Assembly: GCF_963921235.1 (NCBI RefSeq)
Contig: NC_086097.1
Span: forward strand, 37,264,001-37,328,000
Length of the DNA stretch: 64,000 nt
Direction: 5' to 3'
Source: Mobula hypostoma
Taxonomy: Eukaryota
Shown: positions 2,137 through 47,700 of the stretch, piece by piece
Layout: every line of letters begins with the position of its first letter
Position numbering within the stretch: position 1 is the stretch's first letter
Translations under genes and position numbers: made by a program
Notes under the pieces: generated by a model
Told to the model about the DNA's origin: nothing
Database searches by the model: none
What the model saw: only the letters and a program-made list of their open reading frames with translations

Positions 2137-2585
2137 CAAAAAGAAATGCTCTCTCAGTAGACAATATGACAACCAAAAATCTCAGTTAAAAAGACATTCT
2201 GTCTGATGTAGATCTTGGATCCATGCACCCACATTTTCTTCTTAAATATCCCTTAAGTCCACCTAATTTCTCAACATATGTGTTGATCAACATACGCCAA
2301 TATTTCAATGATAATTAGAACTTAAATGCACAGGAGGAGTGATATGAATAATAAATTTTTGATTATTTATTTTTTTCTATTTAGCAAAATAATGCTTATT
2401 TTTATGTCCTAAGAAGGATGGAGCAAACCTTCTGACTTTTTGACTGGGACAAAAAAAAAATCTCATTCCAGCAATGCTGCCATCTCTCTGAACAATTCAT
2501 TCCAATGCAGAAGGTGAAAAAAAAGCCCATTGAAAACCAAGTTCCTGATATTCTAATCTAATATGTTGGCTCCTCTATGTATTTA

Positions 2586-20699: not shown

Positions 20700-23600
20700 A
20701 AATCGAGGTTAAAAATAAATCGGGGGAAAATCCTTAACCGAAATTTATACATAAAAGAGTGCAAGGTGGGCTTGAACTAGAGATCACGACGGAAAACAAG
20801 ACGGGGAATATAAGATTAAAATATCAACGAATATGAAAGGAAATCGTCAGAATTCATGGATATATGAATCACGAAAGAAGAATGAACCGGAAGGGGGCCG
20901 TAGATAAACTTCGCAAGAAACATAAGTCCCTGGAGCCAAGTCCATCGAGCGATTTCAACTCTTTCCCGTTGGCTGAATTTGTTATTTGCTTCAGTTTCCG
21001 CTGTCTTGTTCTGATAAGAATCGTTTTCGGTTCTATCCCACTGAAAGACGCAATCCAAACCCAATCTACCATTCTCAAGGTCTTGGTGCAGGGTCTTCGC
21101 CCGAAACGTCGATCAGTCCCTCTTCCTCCACAAATGCATCTTCACCCGCTGCGGACCTCCTGCAGTTTGTGTTCTTGCTCCAGATTCCAAGCACTTGCAG
21201 TCTCTCCCCAAACCTGACACAAAATTAATCGGACCCCTTCAACGTAAACTAATTTGTCAAAGGGTCATTACTTACTTTTTACACGTATATTTATGAGTAA
21301 ATAAGAGTAAAAAAACGAAATGTTCAACCATTCCAATATGATTTACAAATTCATTCGTTCTGAGTTACACTCTTGATTTGCCTAGAGTTCGCAAAGTCCA
21401 CAATGTAATAATTAATATTAGCAAAATGTTATTATCCTTCTTAATTGAAAACAATCTTGAGTACCCATAGATTTATGGAGAAAGAGACATCCTATTAGCT
21501 ACGACTTTCTCTCCCGGAAAGTCAGGGAAATTTAATTTCAGCTGATTGACAGTTTCCATAGAAACGACCAGGTCTTAATCTGTCTGGACCCACCCTCGGG
21601 AAAATTTGACCAATCACTAGTAGAGAGGACGATCCGATCCTACAGCAGAGTAGGTCGCCGTCACGTTGAAAACACACAGATCCATCCTGGGAGATAGTCA
21701 TCTGCATGGGGGGGAAAACCTGATCGGCTAAATTTAGCCGAGAAAAGAGCGCTTTAGGGCGTAACTTGGGAGGGTGGGGGGGGGAAAGGAGAATCATGTC
21801 TTCCGCTTCCAGCGAAGTCACCAGCACACTTGAGGTTAAAGAGGAGAACGGCAGCCTGCAGCCAAAGATCAATGTATTGGGCTCTCCAGCCACTCTGGAG
21901 CCTGAAGTAAATGCACTGTCTGCAAGCCCGGAGATTACCGAGCAGGTTCCCGTTGAACTTTTAAGCAACCCCGCGTCCGCTCTGACTTTCTCCCCGGAGC
22001 AAGTGGCGTGCGTGTGCGAGGCTCTGCAGCAAGGAGGGAACCTAGATCGCTTAGCCCAGTTTCTCTGGTCTCTGCCTCCCAGCGATCTGCTACGTGGCAA
22101 CGAAAGCATCCTAAAAGCACGGGCTTTGGTGGCCTTCCACCAGCACAGATACAAAGAACTCTACAGCATTCTGGAAAGCCACAACTTCGACGCGTCGTGC
22201 CACACTTCGCTGCAGGACCTGTGGTACAAAGCCCGGTACACAGAAGCCGAGAAGGTCCGGGGCCGGCCTTTGGGGGCCGTGGACAAGTACAGACTGCGCA
22301 GGAAGTTCCCCTTGCCCCGCACCATATGGGACGGCGAGGAGAGGGTCTACTGCTTCAAGGAGAAGTCACGCAACGCGCTCAAGGAGCTGTACAAGCAGAA
22401 TCGCTACCCTTCGCCAGCAGAGAAGCGCAACTTAGCAAAGATCACGGGGCTCTCTCTCACCCAGGTCAGCAACTGGTTCAAAAACAGGCGCCAGCGGGAC
22501 CGAAACCCGTCGGAAACGCAGTCGAAAAGGTGAGGCAGCAAAACTTTCCCAACTTTTCCCAGTCAGGGGGCGCTTCCTAAATGCCACAAAATGGCGCTTA
22601 TCTTGTCCATTATTTCCTACCTCAAAGTTACAAAGGATCACGCCGAAGGATCGTTGGTGGTGTGCAGTGTGCCTCGGCACTACCCCAGTCTTTATCCCCG
22701 GCCCAGCCTGCGGGCCAGTGGGCAGTGCGGGGCCGCCACCGCTGCCTCCGAGAGGAGGGCTGCACACGAACTGTTAAGGGAAGTGTTCTGCTTAAAAAAA
22801 AGAGCAGGGAGAACAAAGAGGTCATTCGTTTGTTGTGTGTTATTCTGATTTTCTTCCTCAAAGACAGAAAGCACCGAGTGTGTGTCCACGCCGGTTATTT
22901 TGGGTGTTTTTGAAGCTGCTTTGCAGCATGGCCGGGCTCTTGGCTTTGTTTTGAAACCTGAGTCTTTCCCATTCGGCTCGAATTTCAGCCGAGTTCACTT
23001 CTCGGCAGCAAGTTTGCTGCTTATTCTTCCATCGAACTCTTCCTGCACCAACTCGCACCTCTAGGGTGCTTCTCCCTTTTCCACTGTTAGATGGGGGATT
23101 GAGCTGATTCTTATCTGTTTACCCCTTTTTTTTCTTTGGGGGTGGGTGGGTGGGGGATCTAATGCAGTGTGGCGGATTCGTTTTTCCCTGCTGCATGAAG
23201 TTGTCGAAATGCTTTTGTATTTGAGGGGTGAGTGCGCACCTGGCGGAGGTAGTGTCGAGCGACAAGTTCGAACTGTATTCTTTTCAAGTGGTGATGTAAG
23301 AAACTGCTGCTGGGCATTAGTAAAGTAAACGAGGTAAAGCACGCCTTTGTACTCGATCAGTGCAGCCTTCAGTTGTATAGGAAAAGTCAAATTCCACAAG
23401 TAAGGAACCGGGCTTCTGACTCATCACCCACTATTGTCTCCTATTTTTTATTGCTTTTTCACAAGGTACCTGGTGCTAAACAGGCACACATGGACGCTTA
23501 CGTGAATCGTCGGTACGATTTGGTAAAGAACTACTCAGTTGCAACTTTATTACGTTGTAAGACCTAAAGGTCATAGGAGTCTTTACTGAGTTGCACTGTC

Positions 23601-26700: not shown

Positions 26701-29700
26701 ACCACAATGCTTTCATGCCCCAGCACCACCCGTTTTTGTAACTTCTGTATACCTACACACGGCATATATACACCAAAGTATCTGTGTCCTGTGTATTCTT
26801 GTACATTTCTCTGTATCAATTTAAGTAAAGAGTTATTGTCAATCGTATTATCTTTATTATTAGTTGAAACGCATTATTTCCCAAGTCCAGTGTAAACTGA
26901 ATTACGGTTGATTCTTTTCCACCTCTGGAGCCATGTTAGCAGAAAGCAGAAAGTCTTTATCCCATCATTCGGAAGTTGTTGAAGCATTGCTCATAGGATT
27001 TAATAATTAATGCTCTAAATCTCCGGATGACCTAGCCTCTCCTTTAGCCCAGTATGTTGGAAAATCACTTTATGGTAAATTTAAAACAATGTTTATTCTG
27101 ATATTTGTTGAAGTGTACATTTCAAACAGATACCCTCATTATGTGGCGTATGAGATCTTTTTCTATATATAATGTATTTTTAGTGGATTTGAGTGATCCT
27201 CTGTCCTATCTAGTTATTAAAATTAAAGTTCAATTTCATTTTTAGGACCACTTGAAGGTGAAATTGATAATTTATATATTTATTTTGGGATCAGATATTA
27301 TATAAAATGAAGTTGCCACTGTCCAATCCATCTGAAGAAATGAACCTGTCCAACATCCGTATTCATCCACACCCCACAAGCCATGTTCATGCATCACATT
27401 TGCTCACATATTATTGAGCAGAAATTTTAGGTGGTCACTACCAGTTTAGCTTTAGAAGTTCGATGCATGTCATTTGCAAATATGCTATCGTGCTAATGTT
27501 CTGCACTTGTAGGACAAAGGATTAAAATACTATCCAACCCTATTATGCCAAATGAAATATTCTTAAAGAATAGCTTTAAAATATTGTTCTCCTGTAATAA
27601 AGATTAATAACATAGCATGAGTAATTCTCATCTTGTTTTACAGTGAGTCAGATGGTAATCACAGCACTGAGGATGAATCCACCAAGGGTCAAGATGACAT
27701 GTCACCTCGGCCACTATCCAATCCATCTGAAGGAATGAACCAATCCAATATCCATATTCATCCAGAAGGCATGTGCATGCATCACATTGGGGAACTGAAG
27801 CCCTCCCAGAGTTCCTCTGGCATACTACTGAATGGAAACCTAGTAACTTCAAATGGATCTCCCGTTTTTTACAATGGAGGTTCTTTCATTCAAGGACCCA
27901 CTGGCGTCCTTGTAAATGGCCTGTCATTAGGAAATGCCCAAGCAATAAGTTTAAGTCCAGTAGCAACCACTCCAAGTGTGCTGGTTAATAATATTTCAAA
28001 TGGTAAGTGATTAAAAGAATTGCTGTTCTTCAAATAAGATCATTTAAAAACTAGTCAGAAATGGCATCCTGTTCGATTATGACTTTCCAATCCAAATTAA
28101 TGTGTACTCTTCCCAGGCTCTGTTAATGGCACAGAAATTAAAACTGAAAATGTACACATCGTTCCCTCTCAAGAAGAGGCACCTTCGGGTTCTACAGAAG
28201 TGAACCAAGGCCCGACGCAAGTAAGCCAGTACAGCCTTGTGCAGCTCCAGAACTCGGAGAGTAATATCCACTTGGTTAATGGAAATGTTGGGATCCCTTC
28301 ACTGCAGCTGCCTGCTGTCTCTGCTACTTCATCTCAAGGCAAGTTGCACTCGCAGTTCCTTTTCTCTGATCTAGACAATGTCTATATATTTTGAACTCTT
28401 AACTCTTAAAAATGAATAGTTTGATTGCATAATGCTAAATGCAATGTATTGATAAAATTGACATAGCACTTTGTGGAGGTGGCACTATTGAGCTGAAAAG
28501 CATCATGTCTGACAAGTGTAGGCCTTATTCATTCTTTAACAGCTGACCAGCTGCATGCAAACATCATCAGCTTACTTAACTGGATTGGTATTTGGACATG
28601 TATATTGTGGAAAAATCCTTTTGAATCTTTGAGCAACTGTTTTGTAACTTTCACCTACAAAACAAAAATGCATCATGGAATTTAACTTTGCAATATAAAA
28701 TTTCCAACAACAAAAAAAAAAGAAACATATGCCTGACCTGTGCTGGAAATGTGATGAGTGCAGTATTTGCATAGTGAATACCAACTGCTATACAAAAAAA
28801 AATTGGCAGCATTGCTGTTATCCAGTATGGTTCAGTCACTGAACAAGGTCACTGGGTGGAAGTCACAAGGCATTGGCAAAACCTGATTCCCTTTGGAAAA
28901 TTGTCTTTACATCTTGTTCTGTTCTTTACCATTAAACTTCTATTGCTGTGGCTCTTTATGTTTTTAGAGCAGACCAAGTTTCCTTGTCTGACCTTAGATC
29001 AGAATTGAATGCACCAATAACCTTATCAAAGGTATCTGGAATCCTCTCCAGGATCTATCAGAATAAGCCCATTCTGTTCTGCATACTGGTAATGTGTAGA
29101 AAGCAAATACTCACTGCCTATTGGTTTTGTTGCTGATGACAACCTTGATTTTGGTACCTGCTTTCTGATTTATTTTATTAATCAATGAGAAGTAAGTGTC
29201 ATCCATAATTTTTCTTGGAAACGAGCCATGTCATTTACAGGCAGAGCGCTAAAATGAAAGTTAAACAACTGAGCATGCACTGTTCTGTGTCTGTATTTGT
29301 TAAAACTTGGTTCCAGGCACAGAAATCCAATAACATAAGCCAAGTGTCATTTTATGGACTTAGGGGCATGAAGGATTATGTGGAGAAGACAGGAGATTGG
29401 GATTGAGATGGAAATGAATCAGCCATGGGGAAATAACAGAGCAGACTTGATAGGGCAAACGCCTATATCTTATGGTCTTACTTTGTTTAGTTCAACATGA
29501 AGGAATTGTCTTAAGAGAAATATAATCATGTACATTCACAAAACCTGCCTGTTATCAGTTTAAAAATCCAAGAAATATTTAAAAGAGCATTGAATTAAAA
29601 TAATCATATTATTACTGGACATTAGCAACTTTTTCCAATGTGCAGTTGGAACCGCTTTAAATATCTGCCAGATGAATAAGTTCAAATGGATGCCAATCAA

Positions 29701-32700
29701 TTGGAAAGGTGTAGTTGAGGGTAAGATGGACCAAACTCATAACAGTCTAGTATCACTCAAATTATGATAGTCATCTTGACTAACTTGTTAGTCTTCCAGG
29801 TACCAGAATAGATTCCTGCTCTCGGCGTTAATTTTTTTTTTCATTTCTAGCTTGAGCTGTACCAATGGTGTTAGTAATAATTCAAAACAGGACGGATGTT
29901 GCATGAACTGATCCAGCAACTTTTCCAGCCCTTGAGGCATGAATAAGGGAATTTCCCCTCCTATTTGAAATTAACATTCAATTTAAAATTTTACTCCTTT
30001 ATAGCTTTTTATTTCTTTTTGTATTTCTAACCATTCTTCCCAACAAGTAGTTTTATTGATTTTTGAAATCTAAGGATAAGCATCTATTTAAGATGATCAA
30101 TTTTGTTCTTCCTTTCCCCACTCACTTTACAGGTACTTTTTCCACCTCCAAAAGAGGTTCCTAGGAATAGAGGTAAATAGTTCACTGAAAGTGGCATTAC
30201 AGGTAGACAGGTTAGTGAAGGATGTGATAGGTGCACTGGCCTTCGTCGCTCAGAGAAGTGAGTATAGGAGTTGGGTCATCGCATTGCAATTGCACAAGCC
30301 ATTGGTGAGGCTGTGCTTTGAGTGCTGTGTACAGTTTTGTGGTCACCCTGTAATAGGAAAGATGACTGTTGTCTCTCCTCTCATTGTGGAAGGAGTGGCA
30401 TCTGTCTTTCCTTTATTAGAGGGAGAGAGCGAGCCAGTGGGATGTTGAAATATTGGAGTGAACAATTAGTTTTTGATTGACTGTAGACCATGGTCTCTCT
30501 TTGGAGTCTTTGCTTTTGCTTGGGTGGTGTGAATGCTGATGTTTATACTGGAATAAGTGGGGGGTGTGGTTGATGCTGCTTGTGCATGGGAGGGAGGAGG
30601 GAGGGCTTTGGGGGCCTTACTTTTTTTCTGTCATTCACTCTTGGAGTTTTTCTTCTGTTTCGAGGATGTCTGTGAAGAGTAAGAATTTCGGGTTGTATAT
30701 TGTATACATTCTCTGATGTTAAATGGAACCATTGAAAGAGTGCAAATAATATAATGAGAATATTCTCAGGAGTCTGAGTTGCAAGGAGAGGTTAGGCAAG
30801 CGAGGGCTTTATTCCTTTGAATGTAAGAGAAAGAGGGGCAACCTTAAAGAATATATTTATGAGGGGCATAGACTGAGTGTGTGCACATAGTCTTCCCAGG
30901 GAAAGGGAATTAAAAATTAGAGGACGTAAGTATAATGTGAGATGGGAAAGAATTAAAAGAAACCTGAAGGGCAACTTCCTCACGAAGAAGATGGTGCACA
31001 TATGGAACTAACTGCTAAGGAAAGTTGTTGAGACAGGTCCAATAGCAACATGTAAAAGGCATTTGGACGAGTATATGGATAAGAATGGTTTAGAGCAGGG
31101 GTTCCCATCCTGGTATCTGTGGATCCGTCAGTTAATGGTAGGGGTCCATGACGTAAAAAAGGTTGGTAACCCTGATACAGGCTAAATGGTGGCAAATTGG
31201 ACCAGCTTTGCTGGGTATCTTGGTTGGCATGGACAAGTTGGGCGTTTGGGTCTGTTTCCATGCTGTATAATTCCAGAAAGATGGGCTTTATTTGTCACAG
31301 GTACATCGAATCACACAGTGAAATGTGTGTGATCAAATCAAATTAGAGCAGATTGTGCTCAGGGCAGCCTGCAACTTACTAACCCTAACCGAACACCTTT
31401 GCAATGTGGGAGGAAACTGGAGCACCCAGAGGAAACCCGCGCGGTCACGGTGAGAATCTATAAATGCCTTACAGGCAGCGGCAGGAATTAGACCATAAGA
31501 CCATAAGACAAAGGAGCAGAAGTAGGCCATTCGGCCCATTGAGTCTGCTCCGCCATTTTATCATGAGCTCATCCATTTTATCCTATTTAGTCTCACTGCC
31601 CCGCCTTCTCACCATAACCTTTGATGCCCTGGCTACTCAGATACCTATCAATCTCTGCTTTAAATACACCCAATGACTTGGCCTCCACTGCTGCCCATGG
31701 CAACAAATTCCATAGATTCATCACCTTCTGACTAAAAAAATTTTTTCGCATTTCTGTTCTGAAGGGGCGCCCTTCAATCCTGAAGTCATACCCTCTCGTA
31801 CTAGACTCCCCCATCATGGGAAACAACTTTGCCACATCCACTCTGTCCGTGCCTTTTAACATTCGAAATGTTTCTATGAGGTCTCCCCTCATTCTTCTAA
31901 ACTCCAAGGAATACAGTCCAAGAGCGGACAAATGTTCCTCATATGTTAACCCTCTCATTCCCGGAATCATTCTAGTGAATCTTCTCTGTACCCTGTCTAA
32001 CGTCAGCACATCCTTTCTTAAATAAGGAGACCAGAACTGCCCACAGTACTCCAAGTGAGGTCTCACCAGCGCCTTATAGAGCCTCAACATCACATCCCTG
32101 CTCCTATACTCATTCCTCTAGAAATGAATGCCAACATTGCATTCCCCTTCTTCACTACCGATTCAACCTGGAGGTTAACTTTAAGGGAATCCTGTACGAG
32201 GACTCCCAAGTCCCGTTGCATCTCAGAACTTTGAATTCTTTCCCCATTTAAATAATAGTCTGCCAAAGTGCATAACCATACACTTTCCAACATTGTACTT
32301 CATTTGCCACTTCTCTGCCCATTCTTCCAATCTATCCAAATCTCTCTGCAGACTCTCCGTTTCCTCAGCACTACTGGCCCCTCCACCTATCTTCGTATCG
32401 TCAGCAAACTTAGCCACAAAGCCATCTGTTCCATAATCCAAATCGTTGATGTGCAATGTAAAAAGAAGCGGCCCCAACACTGATCCCTGTGGAACACCAC
32501 TGGTAACCGGCAGCCAACCAGAATAGGATCCCTTTATTCCCACTCTCTGTTTCCTGCCAATCAGCCAACGCTCTATCCACGTATGTAACTTTCCTGTAAT
32601 TCCATGGGCTCTTATCTTGTTAAGCAGCCTCATGTGTGGCACCTTGTCAAAGGCCTTCTGAAAATCCAAATATACAACATCCACTGCATCTCCCTTGTCT

Positions 32701-35700
32701 AGCCTACTGGTAATTTCCTCAAAAAATTGTAATAGGTTTGTCAGGCAGGATTTTCCTTTAAGGAATCCATACTGAGTTCTGCCTATCTTGTCATATGCCT
32801 CCAGGTACTCTGTAACCTCATCCTTGACAATCGACTCCAACAACTTCCCAACCACCGACGTCAAGCTAACAGGTCTATAATTTCCTTTTTGCTTCCTTGC
32901 CCCCTTCTTAAATAGCGGAGTGACATTTGCAATCTTTCAGTCTTCCAGAACCATGCCAAAATCTATCGACTTTTGAAAGATCATCGTTAATGCCTCCGCA
33001 ATCTCCACAGCTACTTCCTTCAGAACACGAGGGTGCATTCCATCTTGTCCAGGAGATTTATCGACCTTTAGCCTATTCAGCTTCCTGAGTACTTTCTCTG
33101 TCGTAATTGTGACTGCGCACACTTCTCTTCCCTGCCACCCTTGAGTGTCCGGTATCCTGCTGTCTTCCTCAGTGAAGACTGATGTAAAATACTTGTTCAG
33201 TTCCTCTGCCATCTCCTCATCTCCCATTACAATTTCTCCAGTATCATTTTCTATCGGTCCTATATCTACTCTCACCTGTCTTTTACTCTTTATATACTTG
33301 AAAAAGCTTTTAGTATCCTCTTTGATATTATTTGCTAGTTTCCTTTCATAGTTAATCTTTTCTCTCTTAATGACCTTCTTGGTTTCCTTTTGTAAGGTTT
33401 TAAAGACTTCCCAATCCTCTGTCTTCCCACTAATTTTTGCTTCCTTGTATGCCCTCTCCTTAGCTTTAACTTTGGCTTTGACTTCTCTTGTCAACCACGG
33501 TTGCATCCTTTTTACACTCGAAAATTTCTTCTTTTTTGGAATATACCTGTCTTGCACATTCCTCATTTCTCGCATAAACTCCAGCCACTGCTGCTCTGCC
33601 GTCTTTCCCGCCAGTGTCTCTTTCCAGTCAACTTTGGCCAGTTCCTCTCTCATGCCACTGTAGTTTCCTTTACTCCACTGAAACACCGACACATCAGATT
33701 TTGGCTTCTCTTTTTCTAATTTCACAGTGAACTCAATCATGTTATGATCACTGCCTCCTAAGAATTGATCCCCACTTGGTGATCGCTGGTGCTGTAAAGC
33801 AATTATGCTAACCATTGTACTACCGTGCCACCCTTCAGTGACTTGAGCATTACAGGAAAATACTGTTTTCTATTTAACATGTCTATGAGTTGGATGAAGA
33901 CTATTTAGCAGTCTTCTCAAGGGACGTTAGGTCTTTACAAAAGATTCTGTTGTCACCCTCCTTCCTTCTGTCCTATCTCTCCTAGTTCCCTTTTCCTTGA
34001 TGTACGATCTTGTCCTCTGTCTTAACTTTACAATAATCCTGTTTGCTTTCCAGCATAAAATGCCCTATTTCCACTCTCCTCATATATTTGAAGGCATCAT
34101 CCAGATAATTTGTCATCTCCAGGCTCAACCATTAAAATGTTTCTGCTTTGTCTCCAGTTCTCTGCAAACTGCAGCTCCTCTAAAGAATAACTTGTCTTTA
34201 TCAAACATACATTCAGTTGCATTCGCTGTCAAACACTTCTTCATTGGCATTATTCCCAATGTCCTAGTTTTGCAAAATATACACGTTTTAGAAATATGCT
34301 TAGATTCATTTATCACAGACGTGATTTGACTTGCCTTGCTCACCAGACCAGGACTATTCAGTACTATCTATACCCTAGCATCCCTCTTCCTCTAACCCCA
34401 CCCTCTCACCACCCCACACTCAGGACATGTGTGTTGAAGTCATTAATTTATAAGATGAAGACCATTTATTCAGTTGGTATTGCCCAGTTCAACCTTGTTT
34501 CTGCATTACCACCAGACCAATTTCTTCTCCATCTCCCTTCGAGCCTCTACTATGAGCCTCTGTCCATTGCAAACCTGTGGCACACCTGTGTCCATCCCAA
34601 TCATATATCACTGAACTGTTCATTATTCAATTTCTCTTCCTGGCCTCTGGGCCTGCCAATATTTTGAATGATTCTCTCAGATCTCTTTTTCCAAATCTAC
34701 CAGCATCATCATCCTCAAAGAAAGGAACTGACTCCTCCTCCTTCTGGTTTCACCTATCAACTTGTGTTGCTCTCTCCCCGCCTCAACTTTTCTTCTCCAG
34801 TCCTGCCGAAGACTCTCGGCTCGAAATGTCGACTGAACTCTTTTCCATAGATGCTGCCTGGTCTGCTGAGTTCCTCCAGCATTTTGTGTGTGTTGCTCGG
34901 ATTTCCAGCATCTGCAGATTTCCTCTTGTTTGTGACTCCTCCGTCCTTGGAGGTTGGGTGTGGTGGTAGTGTTGGTGGCAGGTGGAGTGCAGTATGTCCT
35001 GTATGTCAATGTCGTTAGTTGTTCAAGTTCTCATCTCACAAATCTCTACTAGTGTTTCCCCCAGCACCATCGTTCAATCACTCAATTTTGGTTTAGTCAG
35101 ACTCTGAAACAAATGTAAATTTAATAACAAAGTACAATCTGTGTGGTGAACTATTCTTCTTTGCATTTCTTGAGACCTTGCAGTTGCTGAAAATCCAGAG
35201 TGACGCACACACAATGCTGGAGGAACTCGACAGTGTACCAGCATCTAAGAAGAGGAATAAACAGTTGACATTTATCTCAATGAAACGTCAACTGTTTATT
35301 CTTCTCCATAGATGTTGCATGACCTGCTGAATTCCTCCAGCATTTTGTGTGTATTACTTTGGATTTTTTGATCTGTCTCATACCTTTGACATGACCATCT
35401 GCTTCAATCTGAAATTTATTCTGATTCCACTCTTACCTTTTTAGTGATTCCATGAACCCCCCCCGCATTGTCATAGTTGCTGCTTCTGAAGTCTCCTAGC
35501 AATTAGACTACACTTGCTTACCTTCTCCCATGCGAGCTCTTGCATTCTTTCTCTGAAGCTCTACACACAATCCACCCCACCACCAGCTGTATTAATTTTT
35601 CTGGTATTTGTCTTGTGAATCCACTTAATCAGTGTCTATTTATGGATTCCCTGTAGCTTCACCCAAGTAAATCTTCACCTATGTAAGTAGTGCAGAAGGA

Positions 35701-38700
35701 GAGGAAAAAAATAATAAGGTAGTGCGTACGGATTTATCGTACATCAGATGGATTCATTGTCCAACTGATGGTAGAGGGGAAGAAGCTGTTCCTAAATTGG
35801 TGAGTGCATGTCTTCATGCTCCTGTACCTCCTCCTTGATGGTAGGGATGAGAAGAGGGCATGTCCCAGGTGATGGGGGTCCTTAATGGTGGAAGGCGCCT
35901 TTTTGAGGAATTGCCTTTTGAGGATGTCCTTGTTGATGGGGTGGCCTGATGGAGTTGGCTGAGTTTGCAACTCTCTATAGCTTTTTTCAATCCTTGCATC
36001 CTCTATCCCCGATGGTGATGCAACCAGTTAGAGTGTTCTCCACAGTACATCTGTAGAAGTTTGCTAGAAACTGAAATTTGTGAAAGAGACTGAAACATTT
36101 ACCTTTAGGTCCCAAGTTAAACTCCATTCCTTCTGAATCAGTTCCATCCTGCCCTTTGGATGCTGTGTGAAGAAAATTGTTAACAATCTCAATCCATTGT
36201 CTCAGCTGAGCTGAGGATCTCTTTTACCAGTCATTCCCATCGCACACTAATTTCCCTGTGACCCATTCCATCATGTATACCCATGAAAGCTACATGGTTC
36301 TTCCACTTGTCACCTTCACTAGGTGTAACACAGAAACACCAGAAGTATATATTTAGGAGAAAACTGGAAAACCCGTTTAATTAGGAACAATGTGCAAACT
36401 TCCACATAGAAAATGCAGGAGATCAGAATTCACCAGAGTTATTGAGCTGGCGAGGAAGGTACACAACTATCTTTTACCACTATATAAAAATGTACGTTCA
36501 TTTTTTTATTGATTTAGTTCTTAATTTTGCTTCTTTTTTTTTTAATCTTGACTGTATCCTTTCATTTCACATGGACAGTCAAAAACAAATGGAATGAAGT
36601 GGGAATAGAGGGAGAATGAAAAGCCTACACAAAAAAATTCAGTCACCGTTTCTAAAACTATTCACTCAGTCCTTTTATTTGTTAATACCTTTCTACTTCC
36701 AATTATTTTTATGTCAAGTTAACTACAGTACTGAAAGTAGTTTAGGAAATGAAGACATGGATGGGGGGGCCAGCAAGCAAGGGAGTTTCCCTGTAGTACT
36801 ACAGGACAATAAGACATAGAAGAAGTAGTAGGCCATTCAGCCCATTGACTCTGCTCAGCAATTCAATCATGGCAAATTTATTTTCCTTCTAAACCCCTTT
36901 CTCCTGTTCTCACCCCATAACCTTTGCCATTAAAACCTATCAACCTCTGTTGAAATATACCCAAGGACTTGGGCTCCACAGCCATCTGTGGCAACGAATT
37001 CCACAGATTCAACAAACCTGCTGGAAAAGCCTTCCTTATTTCTTTTATAAAGGGACATCCTTCTAATCTGAGGCTGTGCCCTCTCCCATCATCTCCATGT
37101 CCACACTGTCTAGGCCTTTCATATTTGGTAGGTTTCAACGAGACACCCCCCCCCCCCCCCCGCCGTTCAAGTACAGAAAGATAAAACACTCCTCATGTGT
37201 CATCCAGGGATCATTCCAGTAAATCTTCTGAATCTGTTCCAATGCCAGCACATCCTTTCCTAGATATGGGCCCAAAGCTGCTGTAATATTTTAAATGTGG
37301 TCTGACCAACGCCTTATAAAGCCTCAGCATTACATTTTTACTTTTATATTCTAATCCTCTTGAAATGAATGTTAACAGTGCATTTGCATTCCTTACTACA
37401 GACTCAACATGAAAGTTAATCTTCAGGGAGTTCCGCACTAGGACTCATAGCCTCTTTGCACCTCTGATTTCTGAACTGTATCCACATTTAGAAAGTAATT
37501 ACTACTTTATTCCTTCTACCAAAGTGCATAACCATAGACTTCCCCAGACTGCAATCCAGCTACTACTTCTTTACCCATCTCCTAATCTGTTTCAAGTTCT
37601 ACTGCAGGCCTCCTGCTTTCTCAACACTGCCTGCTCCTCCATCTTTCTTTGTATCATCCACAAACCTGGCCACAAAGCCATCAATTCTGAGATAAGAACG
37701 TAAGACATAGGAGCAGAACTAGGCCATTCAGCCCATTGAGTCAGCTTCACCATTCCATCATATCCTGAAGTTATTACCCTTGAGCTCCTTCCTTCCTAAC
37801 TCCTTGTATCCTTTTTTTCCACGACCTCCTTTTTCTACCCGTGTCGTTGGTACCAATATGTACCATGACTTCTGGCTGCTCACCCTCCCTTTTCAGGATA
37901 TTGCAGACGCGTTCAGAAACTTAATGGACCCTGACACCTGATGGGGCAAACTACCATCTGTTTTTCCTTTTCATATCCACAGAATCACCTTTGTGTCCCC
38001 CTAACTATAGAGTCCCCTATTACTGCTCCCATCCTCATCTGTTCCCTACCCTTCTGAGCCACAGGGCCGTACTCAGTGCCAGAGGCACAGCCGCCATTGC
38101 TACCCCCAGGTAGGTCACCCCCCCCCCGCCAACGGTACTCAAAATGGAGTACTTATTGCCATCAGATCATTAACATATAACATGAAAATAACTGACCCTC
38201 TCAGAACACCACTCGTCACCAGAAAGCCCGCTTTATTCCCTTTCTTTGCCTTCTACCAGTCAGCCAATCTTCTGTTCATGCTAGTACCTTCCCTGCAAAA
38301 CCATGGCCTCTTATCTTGTTTAACAGTCTCATGTGTGGCGCCTTGTCAAAGTCCTTCTGAAAGTCCATATAAACAACATTTACTGACTTTCCTTTGTCAA
38401 TCCTGTCTGTTATTTCCTCAAAGAATTCCATAAGATTTGACAGGCAAGATTTCCCCTTAAGCGAATCATACCTGATTTATCTTGCACCTCAGAGTACCCT
38501 AAAACCTCATCCTTAATAGTAGATTCCCCAAGTACCCAAAAACCTCATTCTTAAAAATGGAAACAACAGGAATTCTGCAGATGCTGGAAATTCAAGCAAC
38601 ACACATCAAAGTTGCTGGTGAACGCAGCAGGCCAGGCAGCATCTATAGGAAGAGGCGCAGTCGACGTTTCAGGCCGAGACCCTTCGTCAGGACTAACTGA

Positions 38701-41700
38701 AGGAAGAGTGAGTAAGCGATTTGAAAGCTGGAGGGGGAGGGGGAGATGCAAAATGATAGAAGAAGACAGGAGGGGGAGGGATGGAGCCGAGAGCTGGACA
38801 GGTGATAGGCAGAAGGGGATACGAGAGGATCATGGGACAGGAGGTCCCATTAACTTTGCCTCCAACTTTCACCCTGCCCTCAAGTTTACCTGGTCCATTT
38901 CCGACACCTCCCTCCCCTTTCTAGATCTTTCTGTCTCTGTCTCTGGAGACAGCTTATCCACTGATGTCTACTATAAGCCTACTGACTCTCACAGCTATCT
39001 GGACTATTCCTCTTCTCACCCTGTCTCTTGCAAAAACGCCATCCCCTTCTCGCAATTCCTCCGTCTCCGCCGCATCTGCTCTCAGGATGAGGCTTTTCAT
39101 TCTAGGACGAGGGAGATGTCTTCATTTTTTTAAAGAAAGGAGCTTCCCTTCCTCCACTATCAACTCTGCTCTTAAACGCATCTCCCCCATTTCACGTACA
39201 TCTGCTCTCACTCCATCCTCCCACCACCCCACTAGGAATAGGGTTCCCCTGGTCCTCACCTACCACCCCACCAGCCTCCGGGTCCAACATATTATTCTCC
39301 GTAACTTCCGCCACCTCCAACAGGATCCCACCACTAAGCATATCTTTCCCTCCCCCCCCTCTCTGCATTCCGCAGGGATCGCTCCCTACACAACTCCCTT
39401 GTCCATTCGTCCCCCCCATCCCTCCCCACTGATCTCCCTCCTGGCACTTATCCGTGTAAGCGGAACAGGTGCTACACATGCCCTTACACTTCCTCCCTTA
39501 CCACCATTCAGGGCCCCAAACAGTCCTTCCAGGTGAGGCATCACTTCACCTGTGAGTCGACTGGGGTGATATACTGCGTCCGGTGCTCCCAATGTGGCCT
39601 TTTATATATTGGTGAGACGCGACGCAGACTGGGAGACCGCTTTGCTGAACATCTACGCTCTGTCTGCCAGAGAAAGCAGGATCTCCCAGTGGCCACACAT
39701 TTTAATTCCACATCCCATTCCCATTCTGACATGTCTATCCACGGCCTCCTCTACTGTAAAGATGAAGCCACACTCAGGTTGGAGGAACAACACCTTATAT
39801 TCCGTATGGGTAGCCTCCAACCTGATGGCATGAACATTGACTTCTCTAACTTCCGCTAGGCCCCACCTCCCCCTCGTACCCCATCTGTTACTCTTTTTTA
39901 TGCACACATTCTTTCTCTCACTCTCCTTTTTCTCCCTCTGTCCCTCTGAATATACCTCTTGCCCATCCTCTGGGTCACCCCCCCCCCGTCTTTCTTCCCG
40001 GACCTCCTGTCCCATGATCCTCTCGTATCCCCTTCTGCCTATCACCTGTCCAGCTCTCGGCTCCATCCCTCCCCCTCCTGTCTTCTTCTATCATTTTGCA
40101 TCTCCCCCTCCCCCTCCAGCTTTCAAATCCCTTACTCACTGTTCCTTCAGTTAGTCCTGACGAAGGGTCTCGGCCTGAAACATCGACTGCGCCTCTTCCT
40201 ATAGATGCTGCCTGGCCTGCTGCGTTCACCAGCAACTTTGATGTGTGTTTCTTAAAAATGGAATCTAGTTTCTTGCCAACCACTGAAGTCAGGCTAACTG
40301 GCATATAATTTCCTGAGTTTTGCCTACACCCTCCCCCTTCTTGAAGAGTGGAGTGACATTTGCGATTTACTGCTGATACTAGTAGTAAAGAGTGAGGTGA
40401 CAAACTAAGACGCTGCAGCCCCACCATTAGTGAGAGAATGCAATTACAATGTGAGAAATTCACAGGAAGATTTTCCATTTCATCATTAATGGAATAGTTG
40501 ACATAGAACAGGGTGCCACGATAACGTGGCGGTTAACGCAATGCTTTTACATCGTTGGAGTTAAGAGTTCAATTCCGGCATCCTCTGTAAGGAGTTTGTA
40601 GATCCTTCCCTTAACCGCATAGGTTTCTTCCCACCGTCCAATGGCATGGCGGTTAGTAGGTTAATTGGTTAAATAAGTGGGTTGCTGGGCAGTGCAATTA
40701 GTTAGGCCGGAAGGACCTGTTCCATGCTGCATCTCTAAAGAAACAGTGTCATGTGACAATAGTCAATAACGTTGCAATGGGAGTATGTAAGCCTGGAAAT
40801 TTGATAACGCAGTACTGCTTTCTTTAGTAGACACCTCTGGGTCAAAGTGAAACTGTTCTGGGTTGGTTTACGTCAATCAGAAATTTGGCTGTACATCTCC
40901 CAGAACCATTTACTGCCGCATTACCTGAAGCATTGGGCGGCATGATAGTGTGACGGTTGGTGTAATGCTTTATAGCACGAGCGACCCGGGTGTAATCTGC
41001 ACTCTTTCAGGAGTTTGCATGTTCTCTCACATTCAGGTAGTAAATTGGATGAGATAATGGCAACTTGGGAGAGGCCAGAGAGTTGTAGTAGATGGTTTCC
41101 TCTCTGACTGGAGGTCCATGGCTAGTGGAGTGTTGCAGGCATCGGTGCTGGGATCTGGATGATAACGTGGTTAACTGAATCAGCAAATTTGCAGGTAGAC
41201 AGGGTCATAGAGAAAGCTTTTGGCACATTGGCCTTCATAAATCAAAATATTGAGTAAAGAAGACTAGAATGTTGAAATTGTACAAGACATTGGTGAGTTC
41301 TAATTTGGAGTATTGTGTGCATTCTTGGCCATTTACCTGCAGGAAAGATGTAAATAAGGTTGGAAGAGTACAGAGAAAATTTACAAGGATGTTGCCGGGT
41401 CTGGAGGAACTGAGTTATTAAGACTTTATCCCTTTAAACGTAGCAGATTAAGAGAAGATGTTGCAGGGACAAAGCTGAGGATGAACCCAAGTGCAGGACG
41501 CAGGCGCGGAAGCAGAGACATGAGGCGTTAGCACCGCTGCGAACGGGGAACCGGTATCCAGGAGAGTCTTTACACAGAGACAAGGTTTACGTAGAGTATC
41601 CAGGAAATGATGCGGAGCTTAGAACTAACAGTCCCAAGGAATCGGGAAACAAGGTTTACTCACATTAGAGTTGACCAACAAACTGGCAAAGCATGGCTGT

Positions 41701-44700
41701 GCTGCCCGAGTTCTATCCTATGTTCGCTAACGGGAACCAGGTGTGTTGTAATTAGTGGAACTGGGAATGACTGGAAATCAGACGAGGGGATTAAGGCCCA
41801 ATTAAGGAGGTAATAGCAAGATGGGGAATTGCCAGACAGGACCATGACAGTACTCCCTCCACCCCCCAGGCGATCATCCAGGCTTGTCCGGATGGTCCCG
41901 GTGGATGTCTTAGATGAGGGAGGGGTCCAGAATGAAGGAGCAGGGAACCCAGGAATGCTCCTCTGAGCCGTACCCTTCCCAGTCGAACAGGTATTCGAGC
42001 CCCCTGCCCCGACGGCACACATCTAGTAGCTGCCAGATGGTGTAGGCCGGGTGGTTGTCGACGAATCGGGCGGGTGGAGGGGTTTCGGCCAGAGAACACA
42101 AGGAGCTGACGGAAAGTGGTTTTAATTGGGAAACATGAAAAGTAGGGTGGATGCGCATTGATCTAGGTACTGCTGTGGGGTTGATAATACTTTCGACCTT
42201 GAAAGGTCCCAGGAAGCAAGGGGTGAGTTTCTTAGGCTTGTTTTTGAGAGGGATGTCTTTGGATGAAAGCCACACCATCTGCCCAGCTCGATACTCAAGC
42301 GCAGGAGTTCAGTGTCGATCGGCAGTCGTTCTATTGCAATCGGCTGATCTCAGCAGGGCCGTGTGTGTGTCCTCCCAAACCTTGCGGCACCGATCGATAT
42401 GGGCCTGAACAGATGGCACCACAATCTCCTCTTCTTGCACGGGGAACAGCGGGGGTTGGTACCCAAGGGAGCACTCGAAGGGGACCTTCCGATGGCAGTA
42501 CAAACCAGAGAGTTGTGGGCGTACTTAACCCACGCGAGGTGATCACTCCAGGTAAATGGGTTGTTGGTTGTAATACAACGTAGCGTCGCCTCCAAGTCCT
42601 GGTTGACCTGTTCTGTTTGCCCATTCGTCTGTGGGTGGAAGCCGGATGACAGGCTGACCGAGGCACCTAAGGCTTCACAGAAGGCCTTCCATACCTGCGA
42701 GATGAATTGGGACCTCGATCGGAGACGATATCCACGGGGATTCCGTGGAGGTGGAAGACGTGACGGATGAGAAGGTCTGCGGTTTCCTGAGCAGAAGGGA
42801 GTTTAGGGAGGGCTACAAAGTTTAGTGTGTTGGGACCTCTGGTGCACCGTCTTGGAGAACTGGTCTACCACAGTCAGTACGGTGGTGTTTCCATGTGAAG
42901 GGGGTAGACCAGTGACAAATCTAGGGCGATGTGTGACCAAGGACGACCAGGGACAGGTAGGGGATGAAGTAAACCCGCAGGTGGCCGATGGGAGGCTTTT
43001 CCACGGGCACAGACGGAACATGCAGAGACATAGGAAAGGGTATCCGTCGCCAGGGTCCGATCACTCCTGGGGTGGCAGGCGAACCGAGATGTGTACCCCC
43101 ACCGGAGAACCTGAGATCTGACGGAATCAGGCACAAACAGGCGATCGACAGGTCCATTGCCAGGGTCAGGGTCATCCAGTTGGGCTTCCTTTATTGTGGA
43201 CTCAATCTCCCAAGTGAGGGTTGCCACCACACAGGACGGTGGGAGGATAGTCTGTGGGCTGCAAGTGTCCTCCTTGGAGTCGTATTGGCGGGAGAGCGCA
43301 TCCGGCTTCCCATTCCTGGACCCTGGATGGTACATGAGGGAAAACTTGAGCCATCCAAAAAATAATGCCCAATGGGCCTGGTGGGAGTTCAAACATTTGG
43401 CGGTCTGAATATATCCCAGGTTCTTATGATCAGTCCAAACAATAAATGGGTGTTCTGCCCCCTCTAGCCAGTGCCTCCACTCCTCCAATGCTAGCTTGAC
43501 TGCCGCGCCAGTAGTTCCCGATTCCCCACGTCATAATTCCACTCAGCGGGGGACAGTCGGTGAGAAATGAAGGCACAGGGATGAAGCTTTTCGTCCAGAT
43601 TTGATCATTGGGACAGGACTGCTCCTACCTCGGAATCGGAGGTGTCAACCTCAACAATGAATTGACGGGAGGGGTCCAGTTGGACCAGGATGGGAGCGGT
43701 TGTGAACCGCCTCTTCAGGTCAGTGAATGCCGAATCAGCCTCGGAGTCCCAACAAAAAGGTGTGGTAGGCGAGGTAAGTCGGGTAAGGGGTGCTGCCACC
43801 CAGCTGTAATCCCTGATAAATCAGCGTTAAAAGTTTGCAAACCCCAAAAAACGCTGAAGTTGCTTGCGGGTTGTGGGTCTGGGCCATTCCACTGCCCGGA
43901 TCGTCTCGAGATCTGCCCTCACCTGCCTGCTCACAATGATGTCGCCCAGGAAGCTGGCCAAAGGGATGTGGAACTCACATTTCTCCACCTTCACAAATAC
44001 CTTGTTCTCCCACAGTCTCTGGAGGACTAGACGGACATGGTGAATGTGTTTCTGGGGGCTGCTAGAAAATATTAAGGTATCATCTAGGTAGGCAAACAGG
44101 AAGTGATTAATAAAGTCCCTCAGTACATCATTGATGAGGGCTTGAAAAACGGCGGGGGCATTGGTGAGGCCAAACGGCATGACCAAGTATTCGAGGTGGC
44201 CCTGAGGTGTATTAAAGGCCGACTTCCACTCGTCTCCATCCCTCATCCTGACTAGATTGTAGGCACTACGAAAGTCCAACTTCGAGAAGATGGTGGCTCC
44301 GTGAAGCGGTTCAAATGCCGAGTTAATGAGGAGTAGTGGGTACTTATTTTTAAACTGTTATATTGTTTAGGCCTCGGTAATCAATACAGGGACAAAGCAA
44401 CCCATCCTCCTTCTCTACGAAGAAGAAACCGGCGCCCACCAGGGAGGATGAAGCTCGAATAATGCCCGCCACGAGGGACTCACTGATGTATTTCTCCATG
44501 GCCTCTCTCTCTGGTCGGGATAAGTTATAAAGACGACTGGTGGGTAACTAGGCCCCGGGGAGAAGGTTGATAGCACAATCATACGGGTGGTGTGGAGGCA
44601 GGGAAAGAGCCCATTGTTTGCTGAATACCTGTCCCAGGTCATGGTATTCTCATAGTCATAGTCATACTTTATTAATCCCGGGGGAACTAAGGACAAGTCG

Positions 44701-47700
44701 AAGGGTTCCAAGTCAGGCAGGGTCACGGTAGCCTCCCTAGGGGATGGAGCCGACCGCAGACAGGTGGTGTGGCAAAACGGGCTCCAGCTGGCTATCCTCC
44801 TGGTAGACCAGTCGAAGTAGGGGTTGTGATGGTTCAGCCAGGGATATGCTAGAACTACAGGGGCTTGAGGGGAATGGATGAGATTAAATTGTACCTCCTC
44901 TCAATGGTTTCCGGACAGAATCAAGGTCAGGGGTGGCGTACAGTGGGTAACCCGGGCCAGCAGTTTCCTGTCCAGCGCCCAGGCCTCTAGAGGGGTACTT
45001 AATGGCTCCCGAGGTATTCTGGCCCGGGAGGCTATGTCCTCGTCCAACAGATTTCCCTCGGCTCCAGAATCCACCAAGGCAGATACGGACAGGGACTGTC
45101 GTTGATAGTTCACGGCAGCCGGGATCTGCATCCGGGTCTGGGGGACTGAAGGGAGTGTTGCCTGGCTCACCAGAGTCCCCCTTTCTACTGGTGAGTCCCC
45201 CACTTTAGGCCGCAGAGGACAGGTATCCCGGAAATGTCCAGGCTGGCCGCAATAGTAACAATCCCCAGCTCTCCACCTCCGAAGTCGTTCGGCTGGTGAG
45301 AGACGGTTCCGTCCCAGCTGCATCGGTTCCTCCCCCAGGGTAGTGGGGACGGTCGGAGCAGGAGCTATAATTGGAGCGGCTGGGGAACGGAGGCTGGCTG
45401 AAGATGATAAAGTGGGACGTGGGCTGACCCGAGGGACTGGTCTTTTCTCTTAGACGCTCTTGAAGTCGATTATCGAGCCTGGTGGCTAGAGAGATCAGAG
45501 AGTCCAGGCTGTCCACGTCATCCCTCGCTGCCAGTTCATCTTTTATCTTATCTGAGAGGCCTTGCCTTGTCATTCCACCCAGAGTCGGCTGCTAATGTTC
45601 AGAACTCGATGGAGTATTTTGCTACGCTTCGCAAACCCTGGTAGAGAGTTAGCAAGCGCTTAGCGGCGTCCTTACTGTGAATGGGCTGTTCAAAGACCTT
45701 CCTCATTTCAGAGACGAAGGAGGGGAAAGAGGAACAGACCTCTGGACGGTTGTCCCAGATCGCGGTGGCCTATGCTAAGGCATCCCCTCGTAACAGGCCC
45801 ATGATGTATGCAATCTCTGATCTGTCCGAGTTGTACGTACGTGGCTGTTGCTCAAAGACCAAAGGACATTGTAATAAGAAGGCCCAGCACTTCCCTAGGT
45901 CCCCAGCATAGGGTTCCAGTTCATTCTGTTGCAAGGACGAGGCTGAGGACAAACCCAAGTGCAGGACACAGACGTGGAGGCAGAGTCGTGAGGCGTTAGC
46001 ACCGATGCGAACGGGTAACCAGTATCCAGGAGAGTCTTTACACGGAGACAAGGTTTATGTAGAGTATCCAGGAAATGATGCGGAGCTTAGAACTGACAGT
46101 CCCAAGGAATCAGGAAACCAGTTTTATTCACACTAGAGTCAACCAACAAACTGGCAAAGTATGGCTGTGTCACCGGAGTTTTATCCTATGTTCACTAATG
46201 GGAACCAGGTATGCTGTAATTAGTGAAACTGGGAATGACTGGAAATCAGACGAGGGGATTAAGGCCCAATAAGGAGGTAATAGCAAGATGGGGAATTGCC
46301 AGTCGGGACCATGACAGGAGACTTGACAGAAGTATAAAAATTATGAGGGGTGTAGATAGGGTAAATGCAACCAGGCTTTTTCCACTGAGGTTGGGTGGGA
46401 CTCCAACCAGAGGTCATGGGTTAGGGGTGAAGAGTGATAAGTTTAAGGGGAACATGAAGGGAAACATCTCCACTCAGAGGGTTGTGAGAGTGTGGAACAA
46501 GCTGCCAGCACAAGTGGTGCATGCAAGCTCGATTTCAACATTTAAGAGAAGTTTGGATAGGTACATGGATAGTAGGTGTATAGAGGACTATGGCCCCAGT
46601 GCAGGTTGATAGTAGTTGGGAGTTTAAATAGTTCGGCATGGACTAGATGAGTCAAAGGGATTATTCCTGTGCTATACTTCTCTATGACTCTATTCCAAAA
46701 ACGTATCGGTTAATAGGTTAATTGTCACATGGGTGTAATTGGGTGATGCAGTCTTGTTGGACCAGAAAGTCCTGTTACTGTGCTATATATCTAAGAAGAA
46801 GAAATAGTTTTGTTCTCTGTGCAATCTTCCTGTTGATGAGTAATTTGGTTAGTGTTGTGCTGTGAATACCTGCTGGGAAGTTTAGATTAATAAATTTGCA
46901 ATAATTTTCAGGTAGTCCAGGATCTCTTAAGGTCTATCCTTCCTAGCACCTCTCAGTTTCCTACACTCCAAGGAAAAAATCTTATATCCAACCTCTCCCA
47001 AAACACAGTCCCTAGCAACATCTTCATAAATCTTTTCTGCAATCCTTCCAGTTTAATAACATCTTTTGTATGGCAGGGTGACCAGAACTGTACGCAGTAC
47101 TCCAAGTGAAGCCTCATTGGTGTCTTTTAGAATTGCACCATAATTTGTATACTCAATACCCTGACTGACAGTGATGACTCTTTAAAAAGTTTTGAGGGAT
47201 CTTGAAAGACAGACACTGCATTTCATTCCATCATTTTAGATTTTAATTCTGTTGCACTTTAATTCAATTTTAATTTCGAGCTCCTGCTCAGTAACCAGCC
47301 GTTCCAACCCAACAAGCCCAAGCCACATAATTACAACCATGTGATCCATTAACCGCGTAAACCGTACGTCTTTGGAATGTGGAAGGAAACTGGATCACCT
47401 GTAAGAAACGCACGTGGTCATGGGGAGACTGTACAAACTCCTTACTGACAGCGGTGGGAATTGAAAACCGGTTGCTGCCACTGGGATATGACGTGCTGAT
47501 CACTGCACTACCGTGCCACACACTGAGAATTATCATCGAGGTACAACGTAGAAATTTTCCCTTTGGCTACATAGTCTCAACACCGGCCATCAAACTAAGT
47601 TACACAAAGTTACATTAAGCCTTTTTCTTAATTTTTCCCCACATCCCCATCAACTTTCCCAGATTCCTTCACTCATTGGGGGTAATATACAATGGTGAGC

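Follow-up and report, generated by a model that had tools for sequence, protein, structure and literature searches.

An intron in manta SIX4 that probably arose by intronisation of coding exon 2

Spliceosomal intron gain is very rare in vertebrates, and the way in which new introns originate is still debated. One described route is intronisation by way of alternative splicing (Irimia et al. 2008; Catania and Lynch 2008; both as summarised in excerpts of PMC4484396 and PMC12124190), and exitrons are defined, in the same excerpt of Marquez et al. (2015, PMC4484396), as alternatively spliced introns that lie wholly inside a protein-coding exon. In the available part of PMC12124190 (2025), which covers 3,493 vertebrate genomes, three human intronisations alone are considered convincing, those of CYP21A2, RPGR and HELZ2, and the same part states that no report of intronisation across vertebrate subgroups is known. 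An excerpt of a recent preprint on TARDBP (10.64898/2026.10.06.756961) describes how disordered regions are recurrently removed by exitron-type splicing in jawed vertebrates, elephant shark included. A literature search, supplements excluded, returned no paper mentioning both SIX4 and exitron. Here we describe an intron of 114 nucleotides (nt) in the SIX4 gene of the manta Mobula hypostoma, located in a window of 64,000 nt (the whole stretch of DNA analyzed: contig NC_086097.1, positions 37,264,001 to 37,328,000, forward strand; coordinates below are those of the window unless stated otherwise). This intron very probably arose by intronisation of coding exon 2 through an alternatively spliced intermediate, an exitron of cartilaginous fishes that became an obligate, decaying intron in rays.

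A GT-AG intron in manta SIX4 and its coding counterpart

The gene is SIX4, a homeobox gene of the SIX4/5 subfamily, as established by its domains and by orthology: the best protein matches are all named SIX4 or SIX4a, and Pfam identifies PF16878 (SIX1_SD, 2.7e-48) and PF00046 (Homeodomain, 1.7e-13) on the RefSeq SIX4a protein of M. hypostoma (P0124). A four-exon model using the junction 28002^28117 totals 2133 nt and encodes 710 amino acids (aa) followed by a stop (Table 1). Its product is identical to P0124 at 710/710 residues, confirming the statement of a preliminary description of this DNA, made from the letters alone, that splicing of the interval 28003..28116 joins exon sequence in frame. 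The spliced product differs from the Mobula birostris protein (P0001) at four residues, and the junction is already present in the public automatic annotation of M. hypostoma SIX4a.

The interval 28003..28116, equal in length to 38 codons, is very probably a true spliceosomal GT-AG intron of manta SIX4. At its donor boundary (28002|28003) the sequence runs ...TCAAATG|GTAAGTGA..., the upstream exon reading ...AAT ATT TCA AAT G, and at its acceptor boundary (28116|28117) it runs ...tgtgtactcttcccag|GCTCTG..., the exon resuming with GCTCTGTTAATGGC. Splicing takes place in phase 1, such that the G at 28002 and the GC at 28117-8 rebuild a Gly codon. The 114-nt length, the ATG|GTAAGT donor and the ctcttcccag|G acceptor can all be read in the sequence as the preliminary description gave them; the acceptor is accompanied by a pyrimidine tract, and the GT-AG signs were judged against the U2-type consensus. 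A candidate branch site, TTAAT, read from the YTNAY consensus, places its A at about -17; branch sites are expected 18-40 nt upstream of the acceptor.

Read through in the frame of the exon, the interval yields G K stop L K E L L F F K stop ... C V L F P G, with TGA at 28008, TAA at 28035, TGA at 28080 and TAA at 28098, so that both the four in-frame stops and the read-through ending in ...CVLFP|G had been correctly called. Splicing out of 28003..28116 is required for full-length manta SIX4, because this copy holds stops and frameshifts and both of its splice sites are intact. Its GC content is 0.32 vs 0.45 for exon 2, and low GC, stops and frameshifts between preserved splice ends look like the marks of an untranslated stretch whose ends would still be under selection. 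A pseudogene or an assembly error as the source of the in-frame stops was rejected, since the 710-aa frame is otherwise uninterrupted and has its match in eight batoid species. Searching the manta genome with the long protein of the shark Cetorhinus revealed no other locus covering residues 245-748, and a 56-aa shark stretch used as the query matched at chance level only, in three places (E 1.3-4.9), and missed the SIX4 locus itself; at that sensitivity, the genome showed no intact second copy of the segment.

The counterpart of this intron in sharks and chimaera is a block of coding sequence. Six sharks, namely, Heptranchias perlo, Heterodontus francisci, Carcharodon carcharias, Cetorhinus maximus, Scyliorhinus canicula, and S. 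torazame, have annotated long and short SIX4 isoforms of 748 and 711 aa (740 and 703 aa in S. torazame), which differ by one block only, G-ELLVNCSPSNKDFKN.TESLSCSTVTFNPNSSVPFP-G, of 37 codons (111 nt). In Callorhinchus, a chimaera, the block is present in a 753-aa model (P0150) and absent from a 674-aa RefSeq model (P0010), and six further sharks (Hemiscyllium, two Chiloscyllium, Stegostoma, Mustelus, and Rhincodon, the latter partial) have block-less models only. The short form is annotated in all chondrichthyans examined and is the sole form in 8/8 batoid species (two Mobula, Hypanus, Hemitrygon, Narcine, Rhinoraja, Amblyraja, and Leucoraja). Gly-Glu opens the block, placing a GT within G|GTGAG-type codons, and Phe-Pro-Gly (..CCAG|G) closes it; these are the positions of the manta splice sites. 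The manta acceptor CAG|G falls on the ancestral codons for F-P-G (TTC CCA G|G), as the preliminary description had proposed. Across the seven long forms (six sharks and the chimaera), the block contains neither indel nor stop and is 64-94% identical, the rest of exon 2 being 75-98% identical; it is thus somewhat less conserved than its surroundings yet clearly maintained as a frame. A protein search with the shark segment (P0004 residues 345-425), in which cluster representatives only were searched, returned the query alone. In the sawshark Pristiophorus japonicus, a 388-aa model (P0128) links ..SISN to a site about 36 nt into exon 2b, where it continues in a different frame to a premature end (..VYTCLPLKKWQLQVLLKSVEARHK), the same donor being paired with a downstream alternative acceptor.

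Frameshift-aware alignment of positions 28005..28115 to each of the seven shark and chimaera peptides was colinear over the full length, with scores of 52-80 compared with means of -4.8 to -8.5 (sd 8-9) for shuffled introns (z 7.1-10.1); for each of the seven peptides, 0/200 shuffles reached the observed score. Three +1 frameshifts, seen as 4-nt steps, account for the difference between 114 and 111 nt. Once the frame is restored, 20/36 codons match the Heptranchias peptide (P0127; N-C-.-.-S-N-K, F-K-N, E, S-C-S, T-F-N-P-N, V, F-P), and the stops of this homology-restored frame fall at 28008, 28052, and 28098. The genome search with the long Cetorhinus protein gave the same picture, residues 245-478 aligning straight through the intron with two TGA and two TAA inside. 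Judged by these alignments, 28003..28116 is the homologue of the shark and chimaera coding block.

The segment is also coding in bony vertebrates. Ortholog sets were assembled with an exon 1 query for longer proteins, and a second search seeded by a caecilian SIX4 reached the tetrapods. In alignments, coelacanth, lungfish, caecilians, bichir, paddlefish, gar, and pike have about 30-41 residues between ..SN(G) and ..FP(G/A)..TE(V/I)K. All 117 tetrapod SIX4 proteins (P0151-P0267: birds, turtles, frog, mammals) carry the segment, with 56-60 residues in the interval vs 19 in manta by script alignment, which bears out the statement of the preliminary description that about 40 residues lie between VSNG and SFPGLIPSTEVKRE in the human protein; chimpanzee SIX4 (P0167) fits this context, ..VSNG .. 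SFPGLIPSTEVKRE. Among the 108 bony-vertebrate models covering the interval, its length is 40-58 residues in 97 and 20-36 in 11. The cross-species comparison suggested at the outset, made at the protein level, finds the segment coding in 117/117 tetrapods, six sharks, the chimaera, and most bony-fish models, and the short form alone in 8/8 batoids. Many mammals have annotated SIX4 X1/X2 pairs about 8 aa apart (e.g., 781/773, 787/779); both members carry the full interval, and the difference must therefore lie outside it. Three splice forms of mouse Six4/AREC3 were reportedly described in 1996.

In six teleost six4a models (P0022, P0048, P0113, P0101, P0045, and P0075), the interval holds only 20-27 residues. 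For three of these models (P0022, P0048, and P0101), the missing piece has Val (GTN) as its first residue and Gln or Glu (CAG/GAG) as its last, a pattern that would fit GT..AG splicing within exon 2 from a donor two bases away from that of chondrichthyans. The teleost short models suggest independent exitron-like splicing in the same disordered linker; if so, their nearby yet non-identical junctions would make this linker a recurrent site of intron birth.

In global alignments of the shark and chimaera peptides with those of chimpanzee, turtle, frog, coelacanth, gar, paddlefish, and bichir, 12/14 comparisons, all but the two with bichir, were significant (z 4.1-7.8, with 0-3/1000 shuffles reaching the score), the common core of the segment being K-D/E-F/Y-K-x-L followed by a Y/F-N/S-P stretch and F-P. 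Since the chondrichthyan block is homologous to the bony-vertebrate segment, the last ancestor shared by the jawed vertebrates already possessed a translatable segment, which makes the manta state derived. The polarity thus runs from coding sequence to intron, a statement that holds for the jawed-vertebrate ancestor only.

Timing, route, and competing explanations

Skates and mantas are distant batoids, and two skate-derived sequences bear on the age of the loss. A Logan-derived protein (P0146), seen on three contigs of which the longest measures 2975 nt, is identical to little skate (Leucoraja) SIX4a at 102/102 positions (residues 264-365), after which it terminates with one further residue, K (..NISNGK), which is what read-through of an unspliced skate copy starting with GGT AAG stop, as in manta, would be expected to give. 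A 2266-nt Logan contig encodes a complete 704-aa skate SIX4 (P0003) with the NISN|GSASG junction; given that the manta SIX4 gene spans 28 kb, this contig is mRNA-like and intron-less and indicates that the junction is present in transcripts of a skate. Taken together with the short-only annotation of all eight batoids, these two Logan sequences make it likely that the long form was lost in the batoid stem. The preliminary description had placed the change in the lineage of the sequenced species. The manta copy has indeed decayed, but the annotated short form and, presumably, optional splicing extend across chondrichthyans, and the coding loss is probably older than manta because the skate protein also ends in ..NISNGK.

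Within the intronisation reading, we infer the order of events, the splicing ratios, the decay of unspliced RNA, and the batoid-wide timing. The ancestral jawed-vertebrate exon 2 would have coded for about 37-41 aa in a long disordered region after the homeodomain, with the conserved K-D/E-F-K-x-L core. In cartilaginous fishes, a latent GT in G|GTGAG (Gly-Glu) and a latent AG in CCAG|G (Phe-Pro-Gly) would have become splice sites, thereby turning 37 codons into an in-frame exitron. Sharks and chimaera would have kept the open frame and both isoforms, and in rays the long form would have been dispensable or knocked out by a stop, with only the splice signals maintained afterwards. An unspliced manta mRNA would stop after ..NISNGK at 28008, 330 nt before the last exon junction (28338), and under the 50-55-nt rule its nonsense-mediated decay would be expected. 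An AlphaFold2 model of the long Cetorhinus protein (30-sequence alignment) gives a predicted local distance difference test (pLDDT) score below 50 for residues 253-714 and of 25-28 across the segment, with no secondary structure; with the segment predicted to be disordered, its removal would shorten a disordered linker and not a fold. The idea that an exitron had turned into a constitutive intron in this gene is thus supported by the coding state of bony vertebrates, the isoform pairs of sharks and chimaera, and the homology of the manta intron, and the loss first put at about 38 aa corresponds to a coding equivalent of 37 codons (111 nt).

On a broader and more tentative view, which we hold as possible though somewhat short of probable, three living stages of intron birth would coexist in SIX4 exon 2: a constitutive exon in tetrapods and most bony fishes, an exitron selectively maintained in sharks and chimaeras for roughly the whole history of cartilaginous fishes, and an obligate decaying intron common to all rays and skates. 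If true, the loss of the long isoform with its K-D/E-F-K-x-L motif would be a batoid synapomorphy in a developmental regulator.

Several points weigh against the derivation of the manta intron from a maintained exitron. Polarity was compared within jawed vertebrates, and the two bichir comparisons were not significant (z 1.4 and -0.3). Between sharks and chimaera the block is 0.64-0.75 identical, and the remainder of exon 2 is 0.75-0.80 identical. The isoform models are automatic predictions, and the long shark forms might have been modelled from protein alignments. No manta RNA read or contig was placed at the SIX4 locus: 18 sequencing runs from five studies are listed, none as RNA, and when the contigs of four runs were compared with 27400-28600 at 80% likeness, none aligned in 4/4. 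Constitutive splicing in manta is therefore argued from the annotated model and the stops. The share of words found in the four runs, 0.80, was close to the 0.78 computed for an intron-less copy, (329+192)/665; being non-diagnostic, it was not used.

For the batoids, DNA was read for manta alone, the absence of the long form from annotation is weak evidence that could reflect annotation practice in all eight species, and the closure of the frame across the group comes from one Logan protein (P0146) whose end could be that of a contig and not a stop. These points would equally suit a recent decay, confined to the Mobula lineage or to stingrays, with other batoids holding an open exitron whose long isoform is unannotated. 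We consider such a recent event unlikely, as P0146 matches little skate over 102 residues and ends where a GGT AAG stop read-through would. The optional splicing itself might be older than cartilaginous fishes, an ancestral gnathostome exitron whose splicing was mostly lost in bony vertebrates and whose coding was lost in rays. The six short teleost models, three of them fitting internal GT..AG splicing near the same place, would agree with this, as would the recurrent exitron-type splicing of disordered regions in jawed vertebrates reported in the TARDBP preprint (10.64898/2026.10.06.756961), whose available text does not mention SIX4. The teleost junctions differ in their nucleotides, however, with the donor after a Gly codon instead of inside it and a different acceptor, and 0/117 tetrapod proteins, many X1/X2 pairs included, are without the segment; a pre-chondrichthyan exitron is in our estimation quite improbable.

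The preliminary description had also offered the reverse direction, in which the intron is ancestral, bony vertebrates made it coding by permanent retention, and manta keeps the old state. The presence of a short model in all chondrichthyan species examined would be in keeping with this, and loss or retention of introns is generally commoner in vertebrates than gain (PMC12357937 in the part available). Such exonisation is nevertheless disfavoured and appears highly improbable: sharks and chimaera hold an indel-free open frame of 36 residues, homologous to the bony-vertebrate segment in the 12/14 comparisons above, a homologous open frame in both clades implies that their common ancestor already had a translatable segment, and the frameshifts and stops of manta relative to the shark frame mark manta as the derived state. 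Intronisation of exon 2 through an optional exitron remains the best account of the manta intron.

Gene model and other features of the window

The coordinates of the SIX4 exons, the intron signals, and the remaining features are collected in Table 1. The last SIX4 intron (28339..49135) is about 20.8 kb long and combines a GC donor with an ordinary AG acceptor. The GC donor at 28339 was chosen, and a GT donor at 28344 rejected, because only from the GC donor does the last exon follow in frame and give P0124 as the product. Two more SIX-type exons with SD and homeodomain sequence lie on the same contig outside the window, at contig positions 37380261-37380794 (+) and 37469921-37470463 (-). Counted from SIX4 exon 1, they lie about 94 kb and 184 kb further downstream, and they show 69% and 61% identity, respectively, to the shark SIX4 N-terminus; they probably belong to SIX1 and SIX6, the neighbours in the known conserved cluster. 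The window further contains remnants of transposons, among them a retrotransposon-like element inside the last SIX4 intron, and the open reading frame (ORF) with a weak GIY-YIG match may be Penelope-like.

Table 1. Features of the 64,000-nt M. hypostoma window discussed in the text
Feature	Position	Strand	Remarks
SIX4 exon 1	21796..22529	+	ATG at 21796; SD domain and homeodomain; donor AAG|GTGAGG, phase 2
SIX4 exon 2a, 359 nt	27644..28002	+	acceptor ttgttttacag|T; ends ...AAT G; aligns to exon 2 of all orthologues
SIX4 phase-1 GT-AG intron, 114 nt	28003..28116	+	between exons 2a and 2b; decayed homologue of the shark/chimaera exitron and the bony-vertebrate coding segment (by alignment)
Donor GTAAGT (context ATG|GTAAGT)	28003..28008	+	matches the consensus at -1 and +1 to +6
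First in-frame stop, TGA	28008..28010	+	third read-through codon (G K stop)
Three +1 frameshifts vs shark coding segment	28011..28088	+	near 28011-14, 28036-39, and 28085-88 (approximate, aligner-placed)
3' splice region	28094..28116	+	candidate branch site TTAAT, pyrimidine-rich tract, acceptor CAG|G
SIX4 exon 2b, 222 nt	28117..28338	+	ends at GC donor CAAG|GCAAGT at 28339
SIX4 last exon	49136..49953	+	acceptor ctgttttacag|G; stop TAA 49951-49953
Exo_endo_phos endonuclease ORF upstream of SIX4	1376..2185	-	Pfam match
Long interspersed nuclear element (LINE)-type reverse transcriptase remnant	32226..32936	-	RVT_1 1.9e-33
ORF with weak GIY-YIG match	39338..39856	+	2.5e-4, 21.7 bits; curated cut-off 22.6 bits
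Fragmented element resembling a long terminal repeat (LTR) retrotransposon, inside last SIX4 intron	42353..45449	-	zf-CCHC 7.7e-05, RVT_1 2.9e-28, RT_RNaseH 3.9e-10

Comparison with exitrons and known intronisations

The SIX4 intron adds a new case, and an unusually clear one, to a process that is known but rare. One conserved developmental gene displays the exon, optional exitron, and obligate decaying intron states together, and the residual homology is clear enough for disabling mutations to be counted, such that the route of alternative splicing first and loss of coding later becomes testable with existing genomes and RNA sequencing. That rays have dispensed with a conserved, motif-bearing 37-aa piece of SIX4 is also of functional interest.

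Compared with exitrons as characterised in the excerpt of PMC4484396, the shark and chimaera segment is alike in its length of 111 nt, a multiple of three, such that the spliced mRNA would encode a protein with an internal deletion, in its open frame, free of stops in six sharks and the chimaera, in the coexistence of long and short models, and in its predicted disorder. The manta interval lies inside a protein-coding exon, as judged from orthologues; unlike an exitron in the sense of that excerpt, it has no coding potential, given its three frameshifts and the four stops in the exon frame, which makes it an ordinary obligate intron. SIX4 resembles the TARDBP case, as presented in the available text of the preprint (10.64898/2026.10.06.756961), in having donors embedded in coding sequence for a disordered region and in a recurrence that includes cartilaginous fish. 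The two differ in that TARDBP is another gene, SIX4 having 0 occurrences in that text, and in that no case is described there in which the retained form decayed and the intron became obligate. The intronisation cases in the accessible part of PMC12124190 share with manta SIX4 aligned flanks, a matching insertion in orthologues, a length that is a multiple of three and, as in CYP21A2, a translated intron that is still similar to the orthologous coding sequence. The manta intron stands apart from those cases in that the event is old and took place in cartilaginous fishes, and in that its presumed intermediate, the optional exitron, survives in sister lineages.

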